Shown: piece by piece, positions 7-14,091 of the stretch
Layout: every line of letters starts with the position of its first letter
Numbering within the stretch: position 1 is the stretch's first letter
From: an uncultured Methanosarcinales archaeon
GTDB lineage: Archaea; Nanobdellota; Nanobdellia; Woesearchaeales; GW2011-AR9
DNA length: 54,270 nt
Direction: 5' to 3'
NCBI GenBank assembly: GCA_964439765.1
Contig: CAYTOG010000001.1
Span: 1-54,270, forward strand
Made by a program: the position numbers and the translations under genes
The notes under the pieces: generated by a model
What the model was told of the DNA's origin: nothing
Seen by the model: only the letters and a program-made list of their open reading frames with translations
Databases searched by the model: none

Positions 7-1299
7 TTGTGGAGAAACTTAAAGAAAATCTACTCTTCCAAAACTGTTCGACTTGTTCTTTTAGCCCTCTCAATTGCTGCATTACTTGTTATTCCCCCAT
101 TTTTTCCCTCTTATTTTTCCCACCCACTTGCAAACCATATTTATACAACAGAAACATATGAATCTATTTCTATTGATTTTGATACTATAGAAACAGTTGA
201 TGCTAACGAATCAAAAGTTAGTTTGATTAATCGCCAAATTACTGACTTTGATGTTGAATTACCAGAAAATCAAAGAATACTTGTGTTTGTGATGGAAGAA
301 ATCACATGGAGTGATTTTGAAAGGGACAATGCAACTATCCCTATTGATGAAAATTTCTTTGACATAGTTTCTGATCAAACACATACTTACTCCAACTATT
401 ACTCAAATAATCAAGATAGCAAAACTGCAATTCAATCCATGCTATATTCTCTTTTTATCCCTTATGAATCCTACAGAGACCTTAACTGGGTTGAACTCTT
501 TGATGAAAAAGTAAGAAGTCAAGATGGTCTTTTAGAATTCTTTGATGAAAAAGATTATGAAAAAGTGTTTGCAATTTCCGCTGTAGATATTCCTTGGGTT
601 GGAAATTCCCATTATTCATGGGATCAAAGAATTGCAATTGATGAAGATATTTATTCAGAGTCTGACCCAGACTATCTTTGTTTACATGAATTGCAATATC
701 AACGCGCATGTGAAGATTTGAAGATCATTGAAGATGTACAAAAAGCAATATTAGAAAATGATCAATTATTTTTCTTACAAGAATTTGTATATGGGCATAC
801 GCAAACATACAAAGCGAGATATGGTTTATCCCCTGTTGAATATTACAACATGTACATTCTTCAAATCTACGAATTTCTCGAGGAGAATAATTTGCTTGAT
901 AATACCACAATAATTGTTGTCTCAGACCATGGTTCTAAAAGTGCAGCAGAAATGCTCACAGTAGATGCTTACCACATTCCACTTTTTGTGTATAACAATG
1001 GTTTTAGTTCATCTGACGACGATTCATTTTACTCCCAAGTTTACTTTAAAGATATTTTATTTTTCGAACTTGGGGTTCTTGAATCTCTTGAAAGTAATGA
1101 GTTTTTGTATACAGTTGGTGCAACAGCATCAAATTTAATTGGCTACCTCTCTGAAGAACACTATTTTATCCTTGATGAATCCCATGAAAATATTATGAAT
1201 ACAAATGGAATGAGTGAAGAAGAAATATTATCTGGATATGCCACATATTTATTGTATAAAGAAATGTTTGCAGATGACAGTGTGTTTATTAGTGAATAA
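7..1299 (+). CDS. Membrane-anchored alkaline-phosphatase-superfamily (sulfatase / LTA-synthase-like) protein; 5' end uncertain
   Basis: N-terminal hydrophobic helix (VRLVLLALSIAALLVIPPFF). 'TTIIVVSDHGSK' resembles the metal-ligand DHG motif of sulfatase/phosphoglycerol-transferase enzymes. The frame is open back to nt 1 and the codon at nt 7 is TTG, so the start is unresolved. Confidence 0.5.
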   Translation: MWRNLKKIYSSKTVRLVLLALSIAALLVIPPFFPSYFSHPLANHIYTTETYESISIDFDTIETVDANESKVSLINRQITDFDVELPENQRILVFVMEEITWSDFERDNATIPIDENFFDIVSDQTHTYSNYYSNNQDSKTAIQSMLYSLFIPYESYRDLNWVELFDEKVRSQDGLLEFFDEKDYEKVFAISAVDIPWVGNSHYSWDQRIAIDEDIYSESDPDYLCLHELQYQRACEDLKIIEDVQKAILENDQLFFLQEFVYGHTQTYKARYGLSPVEYYNMYILQIYEFLEENNLLDNTTIIVVSDHGSKSAAEMLTVDAYHIPLFVYNNGFSSSDDDSFYSQVYFKDILFFELGVLESLESNEFLYTVGATASNLIGYLSEEHYFILDESHENIMNTNGMSEEEILSGYATYLLYKEMFADDSVFISE

Positions 1300-1734
1300 T
1301 CATTTTTTATCCAATTCTGTGATCAACTCTTTTACTAACTTTTCTATTTTATCTCTGGCAGTCCTATAATCTTCCATCCTCTGTGGGATTTTTGTATCTG
1401 GATCTTCCACATTCCAAAATACAACATCACCTTGTTTATTTCTTTTCTTTAGATACTCTGGCCAATATCTTTTTTCACCAATTACAACTATTTTATCAGC
1501 AGACTCAGCTATCTTTGGCGTTATCTTCTTGCAAATATGCTCATCAACATTAATACCAATTTCTTTCATACACTTTGCTACAAACTCTGTATCTTTAAGC
1601 GATCTTCCCAACCAATCTTTTGGTGGTTTTACTCCTGCACTTGCCACTTGATGTTCTTGAATAAGGGCCTTGCATAATCCCTCTGCCATTTGGCTTCTAC
1701 CCATATTAGCTTTGCATACAAAAAGAATGTTCAT
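1300..1734 (-). CDS. Low-molecular-weight protein-tyrosine phosphatase / ArsC-type arsenate reductase family
   Basis: N-terminal 'ILFVCKANMGRSQMAE' matches the CX5R(S/T) P-loop of the LMW-PTP/ArsC family; size is 144 aa. Confidence 0.85.
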   Translation of the reverse strand: MNILFVCKANMGRSQMAEGLCKALIQEHQVASAGVKPPKDWLGRSLKDTEFVAKCMKEIGINVDEHICKKITPKIAESADKIVVIGEKRYWPEYLKKRNKQGDVVFWNVEDPDTKIPQRMEDYRTARDKIEKLVKELITELDKK

Positions 1735-1837
1735 GATTTTTGTTTTAATGATTTATTACTTAAGCTTTGTTATAAATTTAAAAAACATATGCTAGTAAAT
1801 ATGGAATCTTCTTTAACTGGTTCTTTTCTGTTTCTTT

Positions 1838-1930
1838 ATGTTCTATGAATTGCTTGGTGCCATTGTTCTTGGTATTCTTTCAGGTATTTTTACAGGCTTC
1901 TTCAACGCAAATTCAAAGATTGGATACTGA
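1838..1930 (+). pseudogene. Displaced, truncated N-terminus of a TctA/DUF112-like membrane protein gene (30 codons)
   Basis: Translates to MFYELLGAIVLGILSGIFTGFF-NANSKIGY*. The first 22 residues share 13 identities with the N-terminus of the 12124..13329 protein (MFVEILIAILLGVSAGTFTGLF-PGIHVN). Similarity stops exactly after codon 22. Confidence 0.6.
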
Positions 1931-1936
1931 TTCTGT

Positions 1937-1976
1937 AGTTTGTTAACAAACTGTTATACAACACTTCGTAGTGTTG
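1937..1976. promoter_or_regulatory. Two adjacent palindromes (candidate operator / recombination-directionality site) at the left end of element 1
   Basis: Perfect 16-bp palindrome AGTTTGTTAACAAACT (1937-1952), followed by CAACACT-tcgt-AGTGTTG (1959-1976). The ACACT-N4-AGTGT motif recurs at 11028-11041. Confidence 0.45.
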
Positions 1977-1996
1977 GTATAAATTGGAGACAAACT

Positions 1997-2488
1997 ATGA
2001 CATACTATATGAGAGTCGGAAACTGGAGAATAAGACGGAACGGAAGGAAAATCAATCTATTTGACATGGTTAAAGAGATTCGAAATGACCTCAAAGCCCT
2101 TGTTCCAGAATTATCTATGGATGGTGAGACTGTTCCAAATGATGTATTGATACCTCTCTTGAGCAAGATACGAACTTATTATCGTCACAAGAAGAAAGGT
2201 GTTCCACTTGGAAGAAAAGGTAGCAAGGGCTATAGGGATTTGACTCATGTAGAGAGAATTATCTTTGATTACATGATTCGAAATAAATTGAATCCTTGCA
2301 CCACATATAGATGGTTCATAGCTTCACGAGTTCCTGCTGATTTAATGGAAGAACTCAAAGAAGGAAAGATGAGTCAAAAGATGGCGATGAAACTTGCTGC
2401 TGCAAGGAAGAGAGATAAAGAAAGTGCTGTTGGACTTTACATCATGGAAGAAATCAGAAGCTTTGTTAAAAACATGAAATGGATTTGA
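1997..2488 (+). CDS. Hypothetical basic protein (element 1)
   Basis: ORF taken from the first ATG (1997), which lies downstream of the palindromes. The tracked 1940 start is TTG and sits inside the palindrome. No recognisable motif. Confidence 0.5.
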   Translation: MTYYMRVGNWRIRRNGRKINLFDMVKEIRNDLKALVPELSMDGETVPNDVLIPLLSKIRTYYRHKKKGVPLGRKGSKGYRDLTHVERIIFDYMIRNKLNPCTTYRWFIASRVPADLMEELKEGKMSQKMAMKLAAARKRDKESAVGLYIMEEIRSFVKNMKWI

Positions 2489-2943
2489 AAATGAAACAAG
2501 ACTATAATCAGGAAATTGAACTTTATGCTTTTGATAGTATGAACAATCTTTCTGATGAAAACATTGCATACATCAAGAAACTGTTAAAGAAAAACAACAC
2601 TTATGTGAAAAAGGATAGATGTTTCTTGAATGCAAAAAAGCTTGCTTTATTCTCAAGAGGAATCATTTCTTATGCTGAAGGATTTATTGCAATCAATGGC
2701 AATACAATAAAACATGCTTGGAACATCATTGAAGGAAAGCCATTTGACATTTCAAGAGATTCAACATTAACAAAGAAACTTCCAGAAAAGTATGAAGGAG
2801 TTATCATTCCGTATTCTTTACTCAAGAAACATTTCCAAGAACATGCTTATTCTGGAATGGTTGAGGAATTACTTGAATCATTCATTAGATGGAGAAAGGA
2901 GGTAGAGGAATTTGAGCGAAATAGAAAAAGACAAGACCAATAA
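2479..2943 (+). CDS. Hypothetical protein (element 1)
   Basis: 154-aa ORF that overlaps the previous stop by 10 nt, an operon-like arrangement. No recognisable motif. Confidence 0.5.
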   Translation: MDLKMKQDYNQEIELYAFDSMNNLSDENIAYIKKLLKKNNTYVKKDRCFLNAKKLALFSRGIISYAEGFIAINGNTIKHAWNIIEGKPFDISRDSTLTKKLPEKYEGVIIPYSLLKKHFQEHAYSGMVEELLESFIRWRKEVEEFERNRKRQDQ

Positions 2944-2956
2944 AATCATCATTGCA

Positions 2957-3988
2957 ATGAACAAAGCTTTGAAAGAGAAGAGACTTGGTCAAAGACAGTT
3001 GTATGAAGTCCTTCTGAGTCAGAAAGTTATAGCACCAAACTCTGAAAAAGATTTCAAGAAAATCTTTGAATGGGCAGTTGACAATAACTATGTAGACAAG
3101 AATCGATTGAAAAGAAAAGGAAAGAAAAGAGGGAAGCTTCCAAAGTATTTCACAAAAGACCAACTCATTAAAATCTTTGATGCCGTTGACAGACCAAAAG
3201 ATGCTGTTGCTTGTTATCTTGCTCTGGTTGCAGGACTCAGAATAAATGAAGTATGCAATCTACAAGTTGAAGACATTGATTTCAAGAGAGGAGAACTCAG
3301 AGTTGTTGATAGTAAAAATCCAAATAGGGGGATTGATAATTATGGAACTGATAGAATTGTTCCCTTTCCAGCATGTGTTCAAAATCCAGTCAAGGCTTGG
3401 ATTGATTACATTGGCGAAACAAGTAAATGGGTAATTCCTTCTGATAAAACTCCTGACAAACCTTTGAGAAAAAAATCATTACATGAAAGATTCAGAGGTT
3501 ATCTCAAACAAGCAGGATTACTTCAAGTTGATTATACAATTGAAGTTACTCAGAAAGTCAATGGAAATAAGATTACAAAGAAAGTTGATAGGCACAAATA
3601 CTACTTTCATTGTTTCAGACATACAGCAGGAAGTAAAGTTCAGAATGACCATAATGATGTTGCTTTAACTCAAGCTTTCTTAGGTCACAAACAAATTGAT
3701 ACAACAATGGTGTATGCAAAACTTACTCCAACAAGAGCAAAGAAAGCAATAGGTCAAACATGGTCGAGCAATGAGTATGAATACAAAAATGGACAACTCA
3801 AAGTTCCAGCACAAAAGCAAGAAGTAGTTGAAAAGGAAGTTGTAAAAGAAAAACCAACTGATAGAACAAAAGACATGCTTCTCGCTGAACAACAAAGAAT
3901 CATTCAAGAGATGGGTAAAGGTAACATTACAAGAGATGAATGTCAAAGAATGTTAAATGACATCAAAGAAGTTTCAGGCTTCATTTGA
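2957..3988 (+). CDS. Tyrosine recombinase / integrase (XerC/D-phage integrase family)
   Basis: Catalytic-signature-like motifs: 'GLRINEVCNL' (Arg I), 'HCFRHTAGS' (H-x-x-R) and 'LGHKQIDTTMVYAKL' (His + nucleophile Tyr). The first ATG is at 2957; the tracked 2912 start is TTG. Confidence 0.9.
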   Translation: MNKALKEKRLGQRQLYEVLLSQKVIAPNSEKDFKKIFEWAVDNNYVDKNRLKRKGKKRGKLPKYFTKDQLIKIFDAVDRPKDAVACYLALVAGLRINEVCNLQVEDIDFKRGELRVVDSKNPNRGIDNYGTDRIVPFPACVQNPVKAWIDYIGETSKWVIPSDKTPDKPLRKKSLHERFRGYLKQAGLLQVDYTIEVTQKVNGNKITKKVDRHKYYFHCFRHTAGSKVQNDHNDVALTQAFLGHKQIDTTMVYAKLTPTRAKKAIGQTWSSNEYEYKNGQLKVPAQKQEVVEKEVVKEKPTDRTKDMLLAEQQRIIQEMGKGNITRDECQRMLNDIKEVSGFI

Positions 3989-4004
3989 GATAAACTATGA
4001 TAAA

Positions 4005-4568
4005 ATGCAAGTAGCCATTTATGCAAGGGTGTCAACTACTGAACAGAATGTTGACATGCAAATAGAAGAACTCAGAAATTATTGCAATAGAATGCAGTAT
4101 TTAATCTATGAGGAGTATGTTGATGTAGGAGTGAGTGGAGCAAAGCAATCAAGACCTCAATTCAATGAGTTATTATCTGACATGAGAAAGAAGAAGTTTG
4201 ATGCAATCCTTGTATGGAAGCTTGACAGAATTGGAAGAAGCCTTCAGCATTTGCTTCACATCATGCAAGAGCTTCAACACAAAGGTATTGGCTTCATTTC
4301 CTACAATCAAAACATAGACACTACAACGCCTTCTGGAAAGCTCTTATTTCAGATAATGGGGGCATTTGCTGAGTTTGAAAGGGAAATCATCAGAGAACGT
4401 GTAAAGGCAGGAAAAGCCAAATCCAAGCTCAAACAAGGCAGAAAATCGCTCAAAATCAACAAATCAGAGGTTTTGAGGCTCAGAAAAGAGGGAAAGAGCC
4501 TTCGAGAGATAGGAAATCTGCTGAATGTCAGCTATGGAACTATTCGTAATTTAATAGTTACCACTTGA
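4005..4568 (+). CDS. Serine recombinase (resolvase/invertase type) with C-terminal HTH
   Basis: 'VAIYARVSTTEQNVDMQ' is the classic catalytic-Ser N-terminus; also 'ILVWKLDRIGRS'. The C-terminal 'GKSLREIGNLLNVSYGTIRN' looks like an HTH. The ATG at 4005 gives the canonical MQVAIYARVS start. Confidence 0.9.
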   Translation: MQVAIYARVSTTEQNVDMQIEELRNYCNRMQYLIYEEYVDVGVSGAKQSRPQFNELLSDMRKKKFDAILVWKLDRIGRSLQHLLHIMQELQHKGIGFISYNQNIDTTTPSGKLLFQIMGAFAEFEREIIRERVKAGKAKSKLKQGRKSLKINKSEVLRLRKEGKSLREIGNLLNVSYGTIRNLIVTT

Positions 4569-4664
4569 AAGTTAAGAAACAACCGAAAGGTTTATAAAGG
4601 TGCTGTGTTTCTCACTTATAAATACATAGTATAATCGATTATAATTACATGAGGTTAACCAAAA

Positions 4665-5867
4665 ATGGCAAAAAAACAAAACGTTTCAGAAGGACAGATG
4701 TTCTTTCATTCAGAAATTCTTGATGCTTATAGACTTGCAAGAGATTTTGCAGGAGAAGAAGGTAGAGTGGCTACAATGCCTGAAGTTATTGAAGCAAAAG
4801 CTGTAGCTGATGCATGGAGTCCAGTATGGACAAAGTATCTCATTACATCTTCTGGAGAATTTTATGGAAAATCAAAAGCAGGAAATCCTATTGTTGTTGT
4901 AGCACATGGCATTGATGGAGTCTTAAATGATGAAGGAATTATAGCTCATTCTACAAGAGATTTGAGAGAAAATAGTTACATTCAATTAACACCTGAGCAA
5001 TTTAGGGCAATAGAAGATGGAAAATTTGGAGATGCTACTGTTCTTGACCATGCACAAGTTGTTGGTATGAGACAATACCCTTCTTCAGTATTAAGCTTTG
5101 ATCAAGCTATGGAAGAGCCATTGCTTAGAGCAAGACTTGGTGGAAGCATGGAAGCATTCTTAAAAAAGCATAAAGAGATTACTCAAAAGGAATCTGGAAA
5201 CGATTATGTTTTAACAAATGACCATAGGTATCCATACATGAGAGATGGAGATTTATACACAGGAGGTTTACTTCACATTGGACAATTATGTAATGTTGGA
5301 AGATGTGGTGGAGAGCCAAGCAGTGTATCAAGCGAAGTTGATGTTGCAGACCTTGCAAGTGCAGGCAGGTTTATTGCAGTTCTTGGAAATGGAAAACTGG
5401 GAAAAGTAGGAGATGGTCTTGAACCAATACTTTCAAACCTTGGTGAAAACTGGGAAAAAATTGCAGTTCCAAATGAAGGAAATGGTCAGTCAATGTATAC
5501 TTTAATGCAAGTTGGAGATGAAACTTTCGTAATGTATGAAAAGGAAGGTGCAAGATTAGATTCAGGACTTCCAAAACACCATGTTGTTTCACTTAAACCA
5601 GTTAATGGAGAAATGCAATTCCAAACAACTGTTGGCGGTTATCATGGATTCTTCAAATACGGAATTGATGAAGTCCAAGCTTTAGCTCCTGAAGGTGCAA
5701 ACGCTTATAGGATGGGAGAACCTCAAAATGTTTGGGAAGGCGGAAATCCAGTTGCACAAGTTGCACCAATTCAGTTTTATAGAGCTGAAGTAGATACAAG
5801 CAAAAGAATTCTTCAACCTGAAGAAGTCAAAAAAGACGTAGGTCTTGTAAGACAGCTTGTTAAATAA
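4665..5867 (+). CDS. Hypothetical 400-aa protein, compositionally distinct cargo of element 1
   Basis: Long ORF preceded by a GAGGT-containing leader. Gly/Ala/Val-rich. One 60-nt line (5281-5340) spot-counts 26 G+C, against 19 in a backbone line (38221-38280). No motif recognised. Confidence 0.55.
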   Translation: MAKKQNVSEGQMFFHSEILDAYRLARDFAGEEGRVATMPEVIEAKAVADAWSPVWTKYLITSSGEFYGKSKAGNPIVVVAHGIDGVLNDEGIIAHSTRDLRENSYIQLTPEQFRAIEDGKFGDATVLDHAQVVGMRQYPSSVLSFDQAMEEPLLRARLGGSMEAFLKKHKEITQKESGNDYVLTNDHRYPYMRDGDLYTGGLLHIGQLCNVGRCGGEPSSVSSEVDVADLASAGRFIAVLGNGKLGKVGDGLEPILSNLGENWEKIAVPNEGNGQSMYTLMQVGDETFVMYEKEGARLDSGLPKHHVVSLKPVNGEMQFQTTVGGYHGFFKYGIDEVQALAPEGANAYRMGEPQNVWEGGNPVAQVAPIQFYRAEVDTSKRILQPEEVKKDVGLVRQLVK

Positions 5868-5938
5868 TTTTTAATTTTTTTAAAACTTCTTTCTTTATAA
5901 ATAAAACAATTAAATGCAATAGAAGGTATTTTTTAACA

Positions 5939-6205
5939 CTACTTTATCTCTCCAATCCATTTGAGAAAGTAGATTAAACCTATAATCAGAACTGCTCCAA
6001 TGATTCCCGGAAGTCCTGCAAGCCATTCAAGGATTCCAAGCCACCAAGGAATAGCTGATTCTGCCATGAGTTCAACACCTTCTTCAACATGAGTAATGTT
6101 TCCCGGGTCTTGACTGCTTTTCCAAGTCAGTTTCATTATACCAAAAAGAGTTGGAACTACAAATAGAACAAATACTACAAGAATCGCTATCTCTTTCGCT
6201 TTCAT
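5939..6205 (-). CDS. Small membrane protein (two predicted TM helices)
   Basis: The 88-aa product has two hydrophobic stretches (IAILVVFVLFVVPTLFGI and GLPGIIGAVLIIGLIYFL). It is the last gene of the leftward operon, after TerL. Confidence 0.5.
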   Translation of the reverse strand: MKAKEIAILVVFVLFVVPTLFGIMKLTWKSSQDPGNITHVEEGVELMAESAIPWWLGILEWLAGLPGIIGAVLIIGLIYFLKWIGEIK

Positions 6206-6242
6206 AGAATAAAGGAAGTATAACCTATTATAATAAGTTTAT

Positions 6243-7808
6243 TCAAATCAGGCTTCCACCACCTGAATCCCATCTACTACTTCTCTTTGCAGCCCATACC
6301 GCATAGTTTAAAGCATCACAGAAATCATCAGATGATTGGCTCAAATGAAAGAGTTTAGTCTTTCCTGAAGCAGTTATTTGATACTGAAACATTCGTAGTT
6401 CGAACTGAAGTTTTTGATGGTTCTTTGGAATGATTATTTGCTCATTCTCCATTCTTTTCTTCAGGTTATTGTAGGCTTCTTCTTTATTGTCTATTGTTGG
6501 TTTGAAGTATTCAACAGGCAAATCGTTCTCTTTGAGTTTCTCACATGCAGGAATAGATAATCCAGCCCATTCAGCAATGATGGTTCTGAATCTGTATCTT
6601 TGATGCAGTTTGATGATGTATGCTATTTGTTCTGAGAATGGTTTATTGTGTAACTCAATAATGTTTTCTACTTTGATAAACTCATCCTCTTCAGATACTA
6701 TGACAAATACTGATGAGTCATGTATTCTTCCCCAATCTATTCCCATAAAGTATCTCTTTGAGTTATCTGGAAAGTCATGAAGTGAATACTCTTTACTTAC
6801 TTTCTGAAGTAATTCAACTGAAAAGAAGTTATCAAGACTTTGCTTGAACTGAGCAAGAATCTCTTGTTCATAAACATGGATTGGCATCAATGCTTTCTGT
6901 TCTTCAAGCCAGTTGCTATCAATGAACTTGTTTCTTGAGGAAGGAATCTGCATTGTAGTAAAGAGTGATGAGTTAAAGCTTTCATAGAACTTGTTGTTCA
7001 CTCCATTTGGACTGCTAATGAGAATCATACTTCCGTATGTTCCTGTTCGTTCATTCTTTATGCTGAGCATTGGTTCTATTGAAGCAAAGACTTGCTCTGG
7101 ATTAACAAAGAATGCTGCTTCATCACATACAACAAAGTCAACATTCTGAAATCCTCTGATAAATGTGGTTGATGGAAGAGGTATTATCTCACTTCCATTT
7201 GAGAACTTTAACACTTCTTGATTTGAACTCTTGAAGTTTACGGAGTTAAACAGGTCATCATTCTGTGCTATGAACTCATGAATCTTGTTAAATAGTAACT
7301 TTGATTGTCTTTCCGTTGGTGAGATAATCAATTGTCTTTGGTTTGGATTGACAATGCTATTGTAAATCAGAAAGATAGCAACAGTAAATGATTTACCCGT
7401 TCCTCTTCCAGCACAGATACAAACTCTTTTCTTTGTTCTGAAATGCTCAAGCATTTCTTCTTGATAATCTTGAACATCAACCTTCAGTAAATCCAATGCA
7501 AACTTCTTTGGATTACCAATCCAGCTATGAAGTTGCTCATCTGAGAAAAAGAAATCTTTATTGGAATCAGAAATCCTTTCAAGACCTTGAAGTTGCATCA
7601 AACGAATAGCAAGATTATCATTTGACCTCTTTGAGTATGATGTAGGTTTTCCTGCAGAGGATTTCTTTACAGCCAAGTTATTCCTTGACATCACCATCCT
7701 GATGTTCTGTGGAGATGTATCAAAGTGTGCAGCAATAAAAGAGATGGACTTACCACTGTCTATGAGTTCTTTAATCAATTCTATGTCCTGTTTATTCCAT
7801 CTCGCCAT
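6243..7808 (-). CDS. terL: Terminase large subunit-like ATPase-nuclease with N-terminal HTH
   Basis: Walker A 'CAGRGTGKS', Walker B 'DFVVCDEAAFF' and coupling motif 'LISSPNG'. The C-terminal RNase-H-like nuclease acidic residues are 'GIDWGRIHDSS' and 'SSDDFCDALNYA'. The N-terminal 'GKSISFIAAHFDTSPQNIRMV' looks like an HTH. Confidence 0.8.
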   Translation of the reverse strand: MARWNKQDIELIKELIDSGKSISFIAAHFDTSPQNIRMVMSRNNLAVKKSSAGKPTSYSKRSNDNLAIRLMQLQGLERISDSNKDFFFSDEQLHSWIGNPKKFALDLLKVDVQDYQEEMLEHFRTKKRVCICAGRGTGKSFTVAIFLIYNSIVNPNQRQLIISPTERQSKLLFNKIHEFIAQNDDLFNSVNFKSSNQEVLKFSNGSEIIPLPSTTFIRGFQNVDFVVCDEAAFFVNPEQVFASIEPMLSIKNERTGTYGSMILISSPNGVNNKFYESFNSSLFTTMQIPSSRNKFIDSNWLEEQKALMPIHVYEQEILAQFKQSLDNFFSVELLQKVSKEYSLHDFPDNSKRYFMGIDWGRIHDSSVFVIVSEEDEFIKVENIIELHNKPFSEQIAYIIKLHQRYRFRTIIAEWAGLSIPACEKLKENDLPVEYFKPTIDNKEEAYNNLKKRMENEQIIIPKNHQKLQFELRMFQYQITASGKTKLFHLSQSSDDFCDALNYAVWAAKRSSRWDSGGGSLI

Positions 7809-7850
7809 TTTGTTACACTTTGTTATAGATTTATTGTTACAAATAACAAG

Positions 7851-9476
7851 TCAGTTTTTTCTGCAAGTGACCTCTTGATTTGCATCAAGAAAGAGATAGT
7901 CCATGTCTATGAGTTTGTCAACTCTTTCATCTCCAAACTCATCTTTGAGTTTCTCAACATTGATGCTGATACGATTCTGCATGAAATTGATAACTTCTTG
8001 CAAGTCATTATCAAGAACATACTCTTCTATTACTTCAAGTTCTTGTGAACCTTGCATTAACTTCTCATCTTGCTTTAAGACTTCTTTCCCTTGTTTTTCA
8101 AGGTTTGATGCCTTTTCGTTGTCTTTGTGAATTAAACTTCTCAACTTCTCACAAGTTACTGCTTGAGCAGTAATCTTTCTGTATAAATCTTCAAGAGTCA
8201 GTGTTTTTATGAAATTTTGAGAAGTTGAACTATCTATGTGTGTTAATAACTTGTTTATCGACTGTTTAAGCTCTTCTATAGTGAAATCTTGTTTTGAGAA
8301 GTTAATGAGAAGTTGTGACAAGTTATGAAAAGCTTGCCATTCATACTTGTTACTATAACCTTCAACCTTCCTGCTATCAACATAACCTTTACCTTTCATT
8401 TCATGCAAGGCTCTTGCAACTGTAGCTCTACTCATCTGAATGTCTGGATTCTCAACTATAGAATCAACACTCATCCATTCCTGACTTGTTAAAACTGCGA
8501 GTATCTTTTGATTGGATTCTCTCACATGCAAGTGTTCCATTCTATTGACTTTATCCCAAACCAACTTGGCAACTTCATAATCATCAAATGTAGAAACATA
8601 GTAATCTTTGACTTTCTCTCTTTGAAATCTGAAAGCATAAGTTACACATCTGATAAACGACAAGAACTTTGGAAAGCTTCGTCTATTGCTCTTTCTTGAT
8701 GGCTGAATCAAGTGAGCAAATGGAATAAAGACTTTGATTGGAGATTCTTTGATTAAATCAGTGAGTGCTTGTGCTACTTTGAAATCTTCAAGTTCTTTGA
8801 TTTCATCTCCACCAAAAGCAAGTTTATCTATTTGATGTTCATACACTATATGGTCTTGAGTCTTTGACTCATCAACATTAAACATTATGTATCGATTGCA
8901 GAGCTGTCCTTCATCATCTTCAGGAGTATTGACACTGTTTCTCCATACACTGTTGATTTCCTTGATTTCTATTCTTTTGAACTTCCCTTCTTTATCCACT
9001 GTTTCATGGCTTGGACTATCTCCACTCATATCTGTGTAAACTCTTTCAAGTGCTTGAGCATCTTTACTGTTTTCTGCTTCATCAAAGATTAAGATGCCTT
9101 TGTCAATCATTGCTCCCTTCTCTGATTTGTAGAACTGGCTTTTTGCACTTGAAGATGTTATTCTCTGGACTTTATTGAATGATTTGGAAGTGCTGTCCAT
9201 AACAGCAGTTTTTCCTTTCCCACTGCTTCCAACAGCCATAGTGTGTATAGTAAATTGTCTTTTGTATAAACCTGAACTTAAACCAGATAATAGAAGTAAC
9301 AAGATTGAGTCTTTCTCCCTACTGTGAATCTTTGCAACTGTTTCAACCAAGAACAGTAAAGGATTGCTATTCTTTGCAATCTTTTCAGCTTTATCCTTGT
9401 GAAATTCAGTGTAAGGTTTTGGAGAAGGTTTTGGCTCTTTCATCTCCTTTTTTACTTTATCAAGTCCTTTACTCAT
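7851..9476 (-). CDS. P-loop replicative helicase-like ATPase with C-terminal winged-helix
   Basis: Walker A 'GSSGKGKTAV' and Walker B 'ILIFDEAEN'. 'NRYIMFNVDESKTQ' parallels 'NRFIVVNVDETHEQ' in the element-2 protein. C-terminal 'MSRATVARALHEMKGKGYV'. The ATG at 9476 forms an ATGA overlap with the upstream primase stop. Confidence 0.75.
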   Translation of the reverse strand: MSKGLDKVKKEMKEPKPSPKPYTEFHKDKAEKIAKNSNPLLFLVETVAKIHSREKDSILLLLLSGLSSGLYKRQFTIHTMAVGSSGKGKTAVMDSTSKSFNKVQRITSSSAKSQFYKSEKGAMIDKGILIFDEAENSKDAQALERVYTDMSGDSPSHETVDKEGKFKRIEIKEINSVWRNSVNTPEDDEGQLCNRYIMFNVDESKTQDHIVYEHQIDKLAFGGDEIKELEDFKVAQALTDLIKESPIKVFIPFAHLIQPSRKSNRRSFPKFLSFIRCVTYAFRFQREKVKDYYVSTFDDYEVAKLVWDKVNRMEHLHVRESNQKILAVLTSQEWMSVDSIVENPDIQMSRATVARALHEMKGKGYVDSRKVEGYSNKYEWQAFHNLSQLLINFSKQDFTIEELKQSINKLLTHIDSSTSQNFIKTLTLEDLYRKITAQAVTCEKLRSLIHKDNEKASNLEKQGKEVLKQDEKLMQGSQELEVIEEYVLDNDLQEVINFMQNRISINVEKLKDEFGDERVDKLIDMDYLFLDANQEVTCRKN

Positions 9477-9985
9477 GCTGAAGCCCTCACCATAGTTTTC
9501 TTTATTCCAGTCTTCCAATGAGGACTCTCTTCCATAGCAATCATGCATTTATCAGATTTCTTCATTCCATCACAACCAAACTTCTGAATCAAGAATGCTC
9601 TGATAGCTTCTCTTTCATACCTTGAATGAAAAGCAAGTTCTTTGACATAGATGTGGATGTGAAAACCTCTTGAACCAGTAAAGTAAGCTTTATACTGAAA
9701 AGCATAGTCTTCTATGTTGTCACAAATCCAATGCAGATAGTCTTCACTGATTCTTTCATCTACATCAAGAACAATTTCACAAGGCAAGATTTCTCTATTG
9801 TCAACTCTTTCAAGAAATCGAAGACCTTCATCACTATGCCAACAGTCAAGAACACATCTCCAAGAACAAAACCCTTTTGAGCCATCTTTTCGTTTGTATG
9901 TGCAGGTTACTCTGAAATCACCCCATCTATTACATAGGTCTTGAAGATAGGCAACTTTGTGTTTAGGCAAGGTTTCACAAAACAT
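9473..9985 (-). CDS. Archaeo-eukaryotic primase (AEP / prim-pol) domain protein
   Basis: Motif I 'VLDVDE' and motif II 'GSRGFHIHIY'. 'MIAMEESPHWKTG' parallels 'MIAKENAPHWKIL' in the element-2 fusion protein. The start is taken at the internal ATG (9985), because the upstream part of the tracked ORF overlaps a better small ORF. Confidence 0.75.
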   Translation of the reverse strand: MFCETLPKHKVAYLQDLCNRWGDFRVTCTYKRKDGSKGFCSWRCVLDCWHSDEGLRFLERVDNREILPCEIVLDVDERISEDYLHWICDNIEDYAFQYKAYFTGSRGFHIHIYVKELAFHSRYEREAIRAFLIQKFGCDGMKKSDKCMIAMEESPHWKTGIKKTMVRASA

Positions 9986-10142
9986 CTTCAGAATCCTCAC
10001 GAATTGATTTAATTTGGTCTTTGTTGATGTGAAAGATAGTTCCATCTGGCATTTTAATTTTAACAAAGCCCCCTTTATCTTCAATGATTGTTCCTTTGAG
10101 GGCTTTGATTGTTCCAGAATCATCCCAAACTATTTTGTCCAT
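9975..10142 (-). CDS. Small 55-aa protein (not in ORF track), apparently translationally coupled to the primase
   Basis: Manual translation gives MDKIVWDDSGTIKALKGTIIEDKGGFVKIKMPDGTIFHINKDQIKSIREDSEDVL*. Its end overlaps the primase ATG (GATGTTTTGTGA). Confidence 0.4.
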   Translation of the reverse strand: MDKIVWDDSGTIKALKGTIIEDKGGFVKIKMPDGTIFHINKDQIKSIREDSEDVL

Positions 10143-10173
10143 AGAGCATCACCTATAAAAAAGAAGAAATGGG

Positions 10174-10590
10174 TTATACCCATTCGTTATCTGAGTTTAA
10201 TTTCTTCCACTCGTTATCAACAAATGCATGGACTTCATAGCTTTCTTTGTCTCTTTCTTTCATCCCATCAGCTATGTGAGAAATCTTGAGTTTGACTCCT
10301 GTCCCCATCTCTGTATTGAGTTTCTGAAAGATTTGTCGTATTTTTCCCCATACAGTCCAAGCTCTGACAGAATAAACTTTGTTTTCAACATCATAGATGT
10401 CAATCCCGAAATCTACACTTGAAAGTTTTTTATCAAACTTCTTTCCATCTTTACCTACAACAACTGTGTCAGTATTTTTCTTCACTCCTTTTACAATTAT
10501 TTCAATACTCTCTCCAACCTTTGGATGAGAGATGTATTTGTTCTCAGTGATGTCGCTCACTTTATCAAATTGTTCTTCATTTCCATTCAT
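10174..10590 (-). CDS. Hypothetical protein (beta-rich; possible OB-fold/ssDNA-binding, unverified)
   Basis: 138-aa ORF in the replication operon, between the RHH genes and the primase. No diagnostic motif. Confidence 0.45.
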   Translation of the reverse strand: MNGNEEQFDKVSDITENKYISHPKVGESIEIIVKGVKKNTDTVVVGKDGKKFDKKLSSVDFGIDIYDVENKVYSVRAWTVWGKIRQIFQKLNTEMGTGVKLKISHIADGMKERDKESYEVHAFVDNEWKKLNSDNEWV

Positions 10591-10591
10591 T

Positions 10592-10843
10592 TTATTTTTC
10601 CTCCTGTATTTTTTTCTTTAACATCTCTTCATGTAGAAGAGCATGAATCTGATTTGTTGCTGAATAAATCTCTCTGATTTGCTGTTCAGTTGATAATGAG
10701 TAGAGAAGTCTATGCCGAAGCCATTGGCTCATATTATGAAAGCCATCTGCTTCCATCTTGTTTTGCAGAAGTATTTTTTCTTGAGTAGAAACTCTTGTTA
10801 CAATTACTTCTTTCTGACTGCCTTTTCTGATTTTACTTTGCAT
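10592..10843 (-). CDS. Ribbon-helix-helix-like DNA-binding protein
   Basis: 'EVIVTRVSTQEKILLQNKMEADGFHNMSQWLRHRLL' fits a beta-strand followed by two helices. Confidence 0.5.
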   Translation of the reverse strand: MQSKIRKGSQKEVIVTRVSTQEKILLQNKMEADGFHNMSQWLRHRLLYSLSTEQQIREIYSATNQIHALLHEEMLKKKIQEEK

Positions 10844-10992
10844 AGTTTATCCACCAAAACATCATTTATCATAGCATGAAGCAAATTACTGACTGTCCTA
10901 TTCTGAGATTTCGCCATCTCTCGAAACTTTGCAGCTTGTGTTATAGTCACAAGAGTCTGCAACTTTACATCTCGTAGTTCGTTTGCTTGCAT
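10804..10992 (-). CDS. Ribbon-helix-helix (CopG/Arc-like) regulator, first gene of the leftward operon
   Basis: 'LVTITQAAKFREMAKSQNRTVSNLLHAMINDVL' fits the RHH pattern. The gene sits next to the palindromic sites at 11028-11062. Confidence 0.55.
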   Translation of the reverse strand: MQANELRDVKLQTLVTITQAAKFREMAKSQNRTVSNLLHAMINDVLVDKLCKVKSEKAVRKK

Positions 10993-11027
10993 GATAGATT
11001 ATAGTATCAAACAAGCAGAATATAGTT

Positions 11028-11062
11028 ACACTCCGTAGTGTGAAAGAATTACACTATGTAGT
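11028..11062. promoter_or_regulatory. Candidate operator pair in the divergent control region of element 1
   Basis: ACACTccgtAGTGT (11028-11041) and the half-degenerate ACACTatgtAGTtt (11051-11064) lie between divergent genes (10992 minus, 11090 plus). The same motif occurs at 1961-1974. Confidence 0.45.
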
Positions 11063-11089
11063 TTATAGAAACATTTAAATAGACATAGT

Positions 11090-11911
11090 ATGTTATACTA
11101 TAGTATGACCTATCAGTTTGTTGAACAAAAGGAAATAAAGGTAGTTACCAAGAATCAAGGTGCTACATGTAATGTGAACATTCCAAAATACATGCTTGTA
11201 GGTCTACGTTGGTTAAATCCTCATCTTGCAAAAGAGCAAATACCTGTGTTTGTTCGAGTATTGCCTGAGTTTGGTGAGATTGTGATAAGCCATAGAGAAG
11301 TGAAACCTTCTGATTTGTCTGACTTTCTCATGTTTGGTTATGCTGTTCCAAAAAACAATCCTATTCGAAAGATTGTAGATGATGATAAACAAGAGTTTAA
11401 TGATGCTGTTTGGATGGCAAGTGAAGATAAAATCAAAGAGAGAACTCAAAGGGTAATTGATGCAAAGAAAGAACATCTTGCTCAACTTGATGCAATGGAG
11501 AAAGACTATGCTTCAAAGATAAAGATGGTTCAAGACCATAAGAAATCATTGAAAGAAGACTTGAAGAAGTTTCCTCAGAACAAGAAGCAATGGGAACAGT
11601 TCATTAAATCTGAAAAAATCAGGTGGGGAATGTATGCAAAATACAGAGATACACGAGGCAAAAAGGATGAACATGACAGTAATTATCTTGAAGTTGGTAA
11701 AGACCACATAGAAGTAAGACATGTTCCAACAGGTCTGATTCAAGCAAAGAAAGTTAATTTGACACCTGCTCAAAAGAAAAGAATTGCTGAACAAAGAAAG
11801 ATGCTTGAGAGGGCAAAGACACCAACAAGCAAAAAGAAACGGGTATCAAAGTCCGGGAATACAAACAAGAAATCAAGAAAAACAGGGAAACAAAGGAGAA
11901 GTAATAAATGA
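11090..11911 (+). CDS. Hypothetical DNA-binding-like protein with Lys-rich coiled-coil and basic tail
   Basis: N-terminal 'CNVNIPKYMLVGLRWLN...VFVRVLPEFGEIVISH' resembles a swapped-hairpin (AbrB/SpoVT-like) 'v.iPk..l..l.w' pattern. Its architecture and position parallel 35625..36080 in element 2. Confidence 0.5.
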   Translation: MLYYSMTYQFVEQKEIKVVTKNQGATCNVNIPKYMLVGLRWLNPHLAKEQIPVFVRVLPEFGEIVISHREVKPSDLSDFLMFGYAVPKNNPIRKIVDDDKQEFNDAVWMASEDKIKERTQRVIDAKKEHLAQLDAMEKDYASKIKMVQDHKKSLKEDLKKFPQNKKQWEQFIKSEKIRWGMYAKYRDTRGKKDEHDSNYLEVGKDHIEVRHVPTGLIQAKKVNLTPAQKKRIAEQRKMLERAKTPTSKKKRVSKSGNTNKKSRKTGKQRRSNK

Positions 11912-12088
11912 AACGACACCTATCGACCCAAAACTATCACAGGGAAATTATACCTTTCACACCATCACAAAAATTGGAGGCATTTAAAAAAAAAGACAAA
12001 AAATAACACGCAACAAATTGCAGAAAAAGTGTCCAAAAAGTTTGAAAAAACTGACAACCAAACTGCAAAATTTGCGGAGAAGAAGACG

Positions 12089-12098
12089 TAAAATATAA
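12089..12098 (+). promoter_or_regulatory. TATA-like box upstream of the TctA-like gene
   Basis: 'TAAAATATAA' ends ~25 nt upstream of the ATG at 12124, the typical archaeal spacing for short or leaderless transcripts. Confidence 0.4.
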
Positions 12099-12123
12099 GA
12101 ATTGCAAAATTCACCTACTATAA

Positions 12124-13329
12124 ATGTTTGTTGAAATTTTGATTGCAATTCTGCTTGGTGTGTCCGCCGGGACATTCACTGGCCTTTTCCCAGGGATTCA
12201 TGTCAATTTAATTTCTGTTTTGGTTTTATCCTTGTCTCCTTTTCTATTGGTGTATACATCTGCTTTGATGCTTTCAGCATATATTATCTCTCTTGCAATC
12301 ACTCATTCTTTTTTAGATTCTCTACCATCAATTTATCTCGGAGCTCCTGATGAAGCTATGGCTCTTTCTGTTCTACCTGGACACAAACTATTACATCGTG
12401 GAGAAGGACACAATGCGATTGTGTGCACCATTATTGGAAGTTATGGTTGTTTAATTTGTTCTCTTTTGGTGTTTCCATTTTTTTTATTGGGGATGGCATT
12501 CATTTATCCAATAATTGACTCACTCATTGGATGGATACTGATTTTGATCATGGCAATTATGATCTTGCGAGAACGAGGGAAACGTTTGATTACACTTGTT
12601 TGTTTTTTACTTGCAGGTGCTCTTGGAATTGTTGTTCTTTCGATGGATTCACTATCGCAGCCGTTGTTTCCACTTCTTTCTGGACTCTTTGGTTTTTCTA
12701 TTATGCTTGTTAGTTTAATGCAACGCGCTGTTGTTCCTGCGCAAGATTTTGGAATAAAACTTAAATTGCCTTTTCATTCTGCTCTGCGCGCCATTGGTGC
12801 TGCAACCGGTGTTGGTTTCATTGCTGCCTTCTTACCTGGTTTTGGAAATTCACAAGCTGCGATTGTTGCAAATGAAGTTATTAAAGAAGGAGAAGCGGAA
12901 ATTTTCTTGACTCTTGTTGGAGGTATTAACACAGCTAACATGCTTATCAGTATTGGGACAATTTATGTTTTAGAGAAAGCTCGTAATGGGGCAATTGTGG
13001 CTGTAAAGGAACTTGTTGGTTTAGTTGATTTTCGAATGATGGTATTGTTTCTGGGAGTTGCATTGTTTGTTGGCAGTGTTGCATCAATTTTAACAGTGTA
13101 TCTTTCAAAAGGTTTTTCTCGTGTGATGTCTCATGTTAATTATACAGATGTGATTTTTGGGATCATATTATTGATTTGTTGTTTAACTTTTATTTTTGAT
13201 GGCTTCGTTGGTCTTCTGATTTTATTTGCTGCAACGTGTGTTGGTTTGCTTGCAAGTTTCTTTGCTGTTGGGAAGAATCATCTAATGGGAAGTTTGATTA
13301 TCCCAGTTATTTTGTATTTTGTTTTGTGA
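12124..13329 (+). CDS. Polytopic membrane protein, TctA/DUF112-like
   Basis: 401 aa, hydrophobic almost throughout. N-terminal 'GVSAGTFTGLFPGIHVN' resembles the G-x-x-x-G-x-(l/f)PG start of TctA-family permeases. The family assignment is tentative. Confidence 0.5.
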   Translation: MFVEILIAILLGVSAGTFTGLFPGIHVNLISVLVLSLSPFLLVYTSALMLSAYIISLAITHSFLDSLPSIYLGAPDEAMALSVLPGHKLLHRGEGHNAIVCTIIGSYGCLICSLLVFPFFLLGMAFIYPIIDSLIGWILILIMAIMILRERGKRLITLVCFLLAGALGIVVLSMDSLSQPLFPLLSGLFGFSIMLVSLMQRAVVPAQDFGIKLKLPFHSALRAIGAATGVGFIAAFLPGFGNSQAAIVANEVIKEGEAEIFLTLVGGINTANMLISIGTIYVLEKARNGAIVAVKELVGLVDFRMMVLFLGVALFVGSVASILTVYLSKGFSRVMSHVNYTDVIFGIILLICCLTFIFDGFVGLLILFAATCVGLLASFFAVGKNHLMGSLIIPVILYFVL

Positions 13330-13383
13330 AGCCACTGGTCAACTACTGCAAAAGTATTTATTCAATGTAACATCATAAAGATT

Positions 13384-14091
13384 ATGGGCATTAGAAAAAT
13401 TAAGAATGTTGAATTAAATGAGATTACTTCCTATTTAGCAGGAGTTATTATTGGTGATGGCCATATTTCAAATTCAACCAAATCAAAAATTGATTTGTCT
13501 CCAGATTATAGAATTACAATTGAACTTGTAGATAAGAGATATTTACAAGAGATCGTTGCCCTTATAAGGAAAGTGGTGACAACTAAAAGTAAGATCATTA
13601 CTAGAGTAAGACCAACAAAAAAGTGCGAGCACTATTATTTTCAATTTAGAAATAAAAGTTTTTACTATTTTTTAACTAAAGATCTTTTAATACCTTCTGG
13701 AAAGAAAAGTGGAATTGTGTTTATACCCACTCCTATTCTCAATGACTCTATACTTATTTCCCACTTTCTTGCTGGTCTTTTTGATACAGATGGAGGAATA
13801 CGTGGGAAAACAATTGGATTTACTTCTAAAAGTGAAATATTAATTATTCAAACACATAACTCGTTGTACAATTTAGGGATACACTCTTCGAAAGATTCTT
13901 GGGTTCATAGAAAATATAATCAAAGATATTTTGGACTACATATTCATAAAGAATCTGTAGATACCTTTTTAAATACGGTTCCAGTCAGAAATAAAGCTAA
14001 ACTATTGAAATCACACCGTCATGTGGACGTGCCGGAGTGGTCAAACGGGCTGGAAGATAGTAACAAAAAGGTACTATCTGGCTTTGCTTAG
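13384..14091 (+). CDS. LAGLIDADG homing endonuclease (double-motif, monomeric type)
   Basis: Two LAGLIDADG motifs, 'LAGVIIGDGHI' and 'LAGLFDTDGGI', lie ~110 aa apart. The 3' end of the ORF overlaps tRNA-Leu by 69 nt. Confidence 0.85.
   Translation: MGIRKIKNVELNEITSYLAGVIIGDGHISNSTKSKIDLSPDYRITIELVDKRYLQEIVALIRKVVTTKSKIITRVRPTKKCEHYYFQFRNKSFYYFLTKDLLIPSGKKSGIVFIPTPILNDSILISHFLAGLFDTDGGIRGKTIGFTSKSEILIIQTHNSLYNLGIHSSKDSWVHRKYNQRYFGLHIHKESVDTFLNTVPVRNKAKLLKSHRHVDVPEWSNGLEDSNKKVLSGFA

Follow-up and report, generated by a model that had tools for sequence, protein, structure and literature searches.

The DNA analysed here, a 54,270-nt stretch that we refer to as the window, is contig 1 of a metagenome-assembled genome (1.15 Mb, 92 contigs) from a DPANN archaeon of Woesearchaeota type. 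It very probably carries a mobile element of ~10.3 kb that has integrated site-specifically, the core being just 6 bp long, at the 5′ end of a single-copy gene encoding a TctA-like membrane protein. Measured from core to core, the element is 10,286 bp long. An original prediction, made from the letters of the window alone, had proposed that an element entered the 5′ end of this gene and supplied a replacement promoter and N-terminus. The proposal is supported by an element-free site in a relative, by a host-like promoter in front of the displaced gene start and by an element-like arm at the opposite junction.

In the mechanism that we propose, a circular element of ~10.3 kb would enter the 5′ end of the host TctA gene by site-specific recombination catalysed by a tyrosine recombinase, with the crossover falling within the 6-bp core formed by the codons for Thr19 and Gly20 (ACNGGC). 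On the P side of the core, the attachment site of the free element (attP) would hold a promoter belonging to the element and a sequence that mimics TctA codons 1–18; on the P′ side, a brief tail soon closed by a stop codon would lead into the integration genes. Integration would strand the host promoter and the original codons 1–20 as a 30-codon stub at the left junction, attL (1838–1930), from where the host promoter would now read toward the genes for a partner protein and the integrase. At the right junction, attR (12124), the element's promoter and mimic would be joined in frame to codon 21 onward, keeping TctA intact, with a foreign promoter and a foreign first transmembrane segment.

The target gene (12124–13329, forward strand) encodes 401 aa and covers positions 1–422 of the 423 in the Pfam TctA model (PF01970, E=1e-43). 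It begins MFVEILIAILLGVSAGTFTGLF, followed by PGIHVNL. The site thus holds what is expected after 5′-end integration: an intact, apparently chimeric open reading frame (ORF) with a new N-terminus and a new upstream region. The gene is present once in the window genome and was found in 84 of 100 sampled genomes of the same archaeal family.

The stub (1838–1930, forward strand) reads MFYELLGAIVLGILSGIFTGFF, followed by NANSKIGY and a stop codon; its codons 1–20 would be of host origin and the remaining 10 codons and stop would come from the element. It matches the start of the window TctA at 13 of 22 residues, and at 36 of 60 bases over codons 1–20, and the similarity stops just ahead of the invariant PGIHVNL. 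The likeness, already pointed out in the original prediction, is unique: a six-frame scan of the whole window yielded no other 22-mer with at least nine identities, and the best match in 40 Markov-random windows of the same composition had 10. The stub also fits 28 family orthologues at their N-termini, with 7–16 of 22 residues identical and 16/22 for the closest relative. The crossover, by contrast, maps to codons 19–20 and not to codon 22, where the prediction had placed the boundary. Hydrophobic N-termini of membrane proteins can resemble one another, and the stub might on that account match TctA by chance; it might also be a small membrane-protein gene in its own right, or have arisen by partial duplication at the locus without any part played by the element. 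We consider this practically negligible: nothing else in the window matches as well, the match exceeds random expectation, and the spacing between such a stub and the integrase module is nearly constant across 83 loci. Across these loci the first ~20 codons follow TctA while the tail is unconserved, which is not the behaviour of an independent gene.

Host-like and element-like sequences at the two junctions

The uninterrupted target expected of an integrative element is found in genome G097, the closest relative used, whose TctA is 81% identical to that of the window. There, a sulfatase homologue is followed by ~50 bp and then by an intact TctA gene, with no element in between. The corresponding left flank in the window is a sulfatase-family gene (7–1299, forward strand; Pfam Sulfatase E=5e-11), 57% identical to the homologue directly upstream of TctA in G097. 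The element's integrase was found in none of the four same-genus genomes, and the 10-kb block is not vertically conserved. An empty site had been anticipated with an arsC-like gene directly followed by TctA; the site exists, but its neighbour is the sulfatase gene, and the ArsC-like gene is missing from the same-genus genomes. In the window, this gene (1300–1734, reverse strand; low-molecular-weight phosphatase family, Pfam LMWPc E=3.7e-16, NCBIfam arsC_pI258 under the cut-off) lies outside the element. None of the four same-genus genomes has it, nor do the regions flanking 30 TctA loci, and from this distribution we take it for a small insertion of its own, specific to the strain, that lies between sulfatase gene and TctA promoter. 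It abuts the sulfatase stop codon with zero spacer and adjoins the attachment site.

The direction of the exchange can be read from the sequences on either side of the core. The 60 nt that precede the stub (1778–1837, forward strand; the B arm, probably the native TctA promoter region) were locally aligned to the regions upstream of TctA in relatives and scored 19 against G088, a value reached by 2 of 1000 shuffles (p=0.002), and 13 against G097 (p about 0.05, likewise from shuffles). All three regions have in common a TGAAAAG..TTTAA block that resembles a B recognition element and TATA box (BRE/TATA-like). The 60 nt upstream of the working TctA gene show no similarity to the relatives' TctA upstream regions (p>0.8). 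They belong to the P arm (11912–12123, forward strand), in which a BRE/TATA-like CGTAAAATATAAG ~25–30 nt before the ATG is a putative promoter supplied by the element.

The coding sequence points in the same direction. Codons 1–20 of the working gene (12124–12183, forward strand), which include the attR core, resemble the arms of other elements. In the core-proximal 30 nt (codons 9–18, CTGCTTGGTGTGTCCGCCGGGACATTC) the working gene is identical at 26 of 30 positions to the attR of an element from an unrelated host (L061) and at 20 of 30 to G097, and the same interval of the stub matches G097 at 24 of 30. Across nine elements, attR arms compared over 30 nt are on average 68% identical to each other and attL arms 53%, while attL and attR arms of the same element average 51%. 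At the DNA level the window attR arm falls into a class, TGCTTGGTGTG...CGGGAC, that is common to elements in unrelated hosts. Identities over the full 60 nt to G097 (44/60 for attL, 42/60 for attR) are not decisive; the upstream regions and the core-proximal 30 nt are. Because of these two sets of likenesses, we assign the stub and its promoter to the host, and the present TctA promoter with the first 18–20 codons to the element.

The opposite assignment would make the stub element DNA and the working TctA gene wholly native, with the crossover lying upstream of the stub and a mini-ORF being carried for some other reason. The attP of a free element must indeed also hold a TctA-like mini-ORF, and 3 of 67 stubs have an element-type arm, so element-borne mini-ORFs exist. 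We nevertheless regard this alternative as very unlikely: what precedes the stub shares nothing with what precedes TctA, the similarity ends exactly at the core, the promoter of the stub is typical of the genus, and the first 18 codons of the working gene are of the element class. Elsewhere, moreover, the stub adjoins the ancestral neighbour of TctA. A 569-aa cation-antiporter gene lies divergently beside intact TctA in at least 14 genomes of the family, and the same gene flanks the stub in G012, G014 and G095, which indicates that stubs mark the native position of TctA. Several of the TctA genes of G027, G012, G004 and L061 start with GTG, and they have in common the DNA-level leader AAAGTGGCATTTTTAG (V/M-A-F-L...), which looks like an element-derived type of N-terminus and a possible footprint of past integrations.

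The crossover core and the integration module

At attL, the codons for Thr19 and Gly20 read ACAGGC (1892–1897, forward strand), at the very position occupied by an exact common core in eight other elements. The attR hexamer of the window is ACTGGC (12178–12183) and agrees with it at five of six bases. The eight other elements (4.5–24 kb) each have both junctions on one contig and in the same orientation. Five carry a bare hexamer as their common core: ACAGGC in L060 (8 kb), L098 (4.5 kb) and L062 (~24 kb), ACCGGC in L059 (~12.5 kb) and AGCGGC in L068 (~14 kb). The common core is ACTGGC(A) in L061 (5.6 kb), ACAGGCTTA in L070 (~11 kb) and a 16-bp exact CGGTATCATTACCGGA in G027 (21 kb). The hexamer co-varies between the two junctions (ACAGGC, ACCGGC, ACTGGC and even the rare Ser-Gly version AGCGGC) while the flanks differ, and on this pattern we identify it as the crossover core. 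ACAGGC is the commonest version, in 37 of 66 distinct stubs, and the third position is variable across the family. In the stubs examined, similarity to TctA always ends at the Thr-Gly (rarely Ser-Gly) codons 19–20, give or take one or two residues, and of the 66 distinct stubs, 30 have their stop codon no more than two codons past the core and 53 no more than 10.

The mismatch between the two hexamers of the window is synonymous in TctA, and both versions are found at empty sites (ACAGGC in G097, ACTGGC in G088). It could be a later substitution, or heterology tolerated during recombination. A search for exact repeats across 1200–13400 returned only chance-level families at the junctions, and the longest exact in-register run there is 6 bp (CTTGGT) and is not the core. 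The original prediction had likewise seen no exact repeat and had considered a very short site; both points are borne out, the repeat having escaped notice because the core is only 6 bp long and one base differs.

The element type recurs at the same gene in other assemblies. Its common part is an integration module that consists of the TctA stub, a partner protein of ~155 aa and a tyrosine integrase, in this order; the cargo varies between elements. We collected 111 loci with this module, all in Woesearchaeota- or Pacearchaeota-type sequences, from four other family genomes, 30 contigs belonging to GTDB genomes that bear the label Woesearchaeota, Pacearchaeota or Nanoarchaeota, and 80 metagenome contigs. 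Of the 111, 108 have a detected integrase and 83 a detected stub (64 of 76 among loci with at least 330 nt of upstream sequence). The core Thr codon precedes the partner gene by 82–263 nt, mostly by 97–118 and most often by 109. Many of the metagenome contigs (L089–L168) start ~190–260 nt upstream of the partner gene, that is, at the attachment site, which suggests that assemblies break there on account of the duplicated TctA 5′ end or of strain heterogeneity. In genome G114 (contig CAYHPN010000005.1; L065, L058; L181), two elements with cores ACCGGC and ACAGGC lie in tandem, 11 kb apart. The TctA gene that follows them has neither a mimic nor a TctA-like N-terminus and shows a stop just upstream of SGLFPGIH; it may be truncated.

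Several observations weigh against integration at this site as we describe it. The two core hexamers of the window differ at one base, so the exact repeat that defines such an insertion is absent from this copy. The empty site comes from another species, with a TctA of 81% identity, and it also lacks the ArsC-like gene. Neither a scan of viral contigs nor a search for terminal overlaps in the locus contigs turned up a circular contig with attP. Stub module and intact TctA gene are parted onto different contigs in G012, G014 and G095 (contigs 5 and 2, 44 and 56, and 24 and 35, respectively; L052–L057, with G014 contig 44 also listed as L079 and G095 contig 24 as L073). An extra rearrangement is required to account for this, and in G012 TctA is preceded by 19 kb of ordinary host genes on a contig that extends 67 kb upstream. 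The separate contigs imply either a later rearrangement that parted attL from attR or an assembly problem. Finally, the source is a metagenome-assembled genome, in which misassembly is possible. A false join between an element and the TctA locus is one form that this could take, and the many related contigs that end ~250 nt upstream of the partner gene indicate that assemblers struggle at the attachment site. Such an artefact is highly improbable here, as the window contig is continuous through both junctions and the same architecture is seen in nine independent assemblies.

An alternative that deserves more weight, though we think it unlikely, accepts the same origin and holds that the element is now fixed, the core mismatch or other decay having turned it into an immobilised resident island. 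One core base does differ, whereas the cores of the eight related elements are exact; the scans matched neither capsid nor portal nor conjugation genes in the element; and the modules of G012, G014 and G095 are about as diverged as host genes and show conserved synteny, which suggests long residence in some lineages. Against this alternative, all ORFs of the window copy are intact, including both recombinases, and the stub and its promoter have decayed no more than orthologous functional 5′ ends have diverged (44/60 between stub and G097, 37/60 between G097 and G088). The element is also absent from all four same-genus genomes, and a single mismatch may be tolerated, given that family members differ at the third base of the core.

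Integration would be carried out by the tyrosine integrase encoded at 2912–3988 (forward strand), which has a tyrosine recombinase catalytic domain (Pfam Phage_integrase PF00589, residues 79–273, E=1e-23; PHROG integrase E=4e-36). It is not a member of the XerA, XerC or XerD families, scoring 93 bits against the NCBIfam model XerA_Arch, for which the cut-off is 220. In five integrases from relatives, the Pfam catalytic domain starts at residue 11–22 in four and at residue 80 in one, and the first catalytic arginine (Arg-I, GLRxxE) lies at residue 40–59 in 82 of 96 complete integrase ORFs, with a median length of 294 aa. Since the catalytic domain and Arg-I lie so near the N-terminus in most of these proteins, the integrases of the family are, by this measure, without the usual N-terminal core-binding domain, and most are a bare catalytic domain. 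In 14 of the ORFs, among them that of the window, Arg-I is found at residue 100–119, which corresponds to an N-terminal extension of some 60–70 aa.

The partner protein (1997–2488, forward strand; ~155–163 aa in its family) has homologues, 36–57% identical, between stub and integrase in the 111 loci. It matches nothing in Pfam, PHROG, NCBIfam or PDB sequences, and its mostly helical AlphaFold2 (AF2) model, with a mean predicted local distance difference test score (pLDDT) of 78.6, has no fold match in PDB or the BFVD. We could not confirm it as a recognisable split-off core-binding domain. Because most integrases of the family are bare catalytic domains, we infer that the integrase acts together with this protein as its DNA-binding partner. 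In most relatives the integrase gene lies directly 3′ of the partner gene; in the window element alone an ORF of 154 aa (2479–2943, forward strand), with no function assigned, sits between them.

Between core and partner gene, the P′ arm (1898–1996, forward strand) contains a 16-bp palindrome, AGTTTGTTAACAAACT, a pair of tandem heptamers, TGTTAAC-N4-TGTTATAC, at 1940–1960, and a second palindrome, ACACTtcgtAGTGT, at 1961–1974. The heptamers, with their 11-bp period, recur at the same offset in many related elements, with sequences that vary by subfamily. As regards arm-type sites, 8-mers common to the P and P′ arms are no more frequent than in shuffled sequences.

Comparison with known integrating elements

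SXT/R391 integrative conjugative elements are placed by a tyrosine integrase in the 5′ end of the conserved gene prfC (PMC2791158, citing Hochhut and Waldor 1999). The window element resembles them in having a tyrosine integrase and in targeting the 5′ end of a conserved chromosomal gene. SXT/R391 elements, however, are bacterial, ~100 kb long and conjugative, whereas the elements described here are hosted by DPANN archaea and measure 4.5–24 kb, and the window copy is without conjugation genes. Hochhut and Waldor (1999) reportedly found that SXT also provides prfC with another promoter and 5′ coding sequence and thereby keeps the gene functional. Near-identity between attP and attB extends further in SXT/R391 than the 6-bp core seen here, and where SXT/R391 combines a classical two-domain Int with Xis, the present integrase lacks the N-terminal domain and is paired with an unrelated protein of ~155 aa. 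The window integrase is XerA-like at best rather than IntSXT-like, and scans of the element with Pfam and PHROG matched no conjugation family. The window element is an analogue of SXT/R391 and not a member of that group.

Among archaea, the integrated elements of Thaumarchaeota use tyrosine recombinases and short attachment sites, have been validated against empty sites, and are known to form tandem arrays at one site (PMC6563490). All 14 of their reported integrations into protein genes lie in 3′-distal regions (PMC6563490), whereas the window element enters the 5′ end and replaces promoter and N-terminus. The SNJ2 integrase is co-transcribed with two small proteins that assist it, Orf2 and Orf3, which are needed for integration (PMC5861418). 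SNJ2 is thus a precedent for archaeal accessory proteins, and by analogy the window integrase may require its partner protein. The two differ in their sites, SNJ2 targeting tRNA-Met with a 14-bp core (PMC5861418) and the window element the 5′ end of TctA with a 6-bp core.

Integrases of the lambda type and those targeting tRNA genes follow the same attL/attR logic, in which the element carries a replacement copy of the displaced gene end. They usually act at the 3′ end of the tRNA gene with a block of identity of 15–70 bp, whereas the window element combines 6 bp of identity with a diverged coding mimic. For IntDOT of CTnDOT and Int of Tn916, minimal homology across the overlap is enough, or none at all; their targets are loose and no gene is restored. 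A comparable tolerance could explain both the 6-bp core and the mismatch within it, by analogy, although CTnDOT and Tn916 have loose target specificity and the window element is specific for one codon pair of one gene.

Neither DPANN nor Woesearchaeota is mentioned in a review on the tyrosine recombinases of archaea. Our literature searches returned no description of this module or its target, and no case of archaeal 5′-end integration that replaces both promoter and N-terminus of a conserved gene. The element looks like a new archaeal variant of the known strategy of gene-restoring 5′-end integration. Mobile elements are poorly charted in Woesearchaeota and Pacearchaeota, where assemblies often break at this site, and the combination of stub, partner gene, integrase and ACNGGC core provides a precise marker for delimiting them. 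The linkage of a partner protein of no known fold to a domain-less integrase, together with the very short core, suggests a recombinase architecture that has not been described. In Methanococcus maripaludis and Methanoculleus thermophilus, natural transformation cannot do without TctA-like homologues (PMC10133366). As the family of the target is needed for DNA uptake in these two methanogens, element control of the TctA promoter could bear on gene flow in these symbiotic archaea, if orthology with the DPANN proteins is assumed. Only tentatively do we combine these points into one picture. A two-protein recombinase of DPANN archaea, comprising a catalytic-domain-only integrase and a DNA-binding partner of ~155 aa in place of the core-binding domain, would act on the 6-bp core; the resulting promoter swap would take over transcription of the TctA-like gene and give the integration genes the host TctA promoter; and the N-termini of woesearchaeal TctA proteins would be a mosaic record of past integrations.

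Cargo of the element

The mobile-type contents listed in the original prediction largely stand: both recombinases, the terminase-like gene and the regulators are recognisable; the primase match is weak, and the role of the helicase is inferred. The second recombinase (3957–4568, forward strand) is a small serine recombinase of the resolvase/invertase type with a C-terminal helix-turn-helix (Pfam Resolvase E=6.7e-50), and homologues are present in several related elements. It is followed by a 400-aa protein (4665–5867, forward strand) whose AF2 model (pLDDT 90.5) has a C-type-lectin fold. Foldseek matched it (E=5e-12, template modeling score 0.75 on the target) to 5ioo_A, that is, AvpA, a variable protein of a diversity-generating retroelement (DGR) from Nanoarchaeota, and homologues occur in both Nanoarchaeota and Patescibacteria. 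Membership in a DGR finds no backing in the genome, which has neither an RVT_1 match nor a second copy of the 3′ region or a template repeat; without reverse transcriptase and template repeat, an active DGR is ruled out. The C-type-lectin fold likewise rules out a capsid or portal protein.

The only recognisable virion-related gene of the element encodes a terminase large subunit-like protein, TerL (6243–7808, reverse strand; PHROG_2 E=8e-45; Pfam Terminase_6N and Terminase_6C). Pfam and PHROG scans of the element's proteins gave no portal, capsid or tail match. We rejected a tailed provirus (Caudoviricetes), as TerL is not accompanied by recognisable portal, major capsid or tail genes and the one large protein otherwise without assignment has the C-type-lectin fold. 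On the same strand lie genes for a 565-aa P-loop nucleoside triphosphatase with a winged-helix segment (7851–9548), which has Walker A and B motifs in its translation and weak winged helix-turn-helix matches and is a putative replicative helicase, and for a protein resembling the small subunit of archaeo-eukaryotic primases (9473–10123). The latter matches Pfam DNA_primase_S below the cut-off (E=4e-4) and NCBIfam PriS (E=8e-6), and it has a 38%-identical homologue in the related element L059. The last gene of the element (11090–11911, forward strand), to which the ORF list and library scans assign no function, encodes a lysine-rich protein of 273 aa.

Two genes for regulators of the ribbon-helix-helix (RHH) type (10592–10992, reverse strand) were recognised by weak NikA-like and RHH_5 matches, with an operator-like palindrome upstream of them at 11028–11041. 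This palindrome, ACACT-N4-AGTGT, has only two exact copies in the 54-kb window, the other being the one in the P′ arm at 1961–1974. One copy stands upstream of the partner gene, and the other between the RHH operon and the gene at 11090. As both copies sit in control regions of the element, their placement suggests a common operator that may link the integration genes to the RHH switch.

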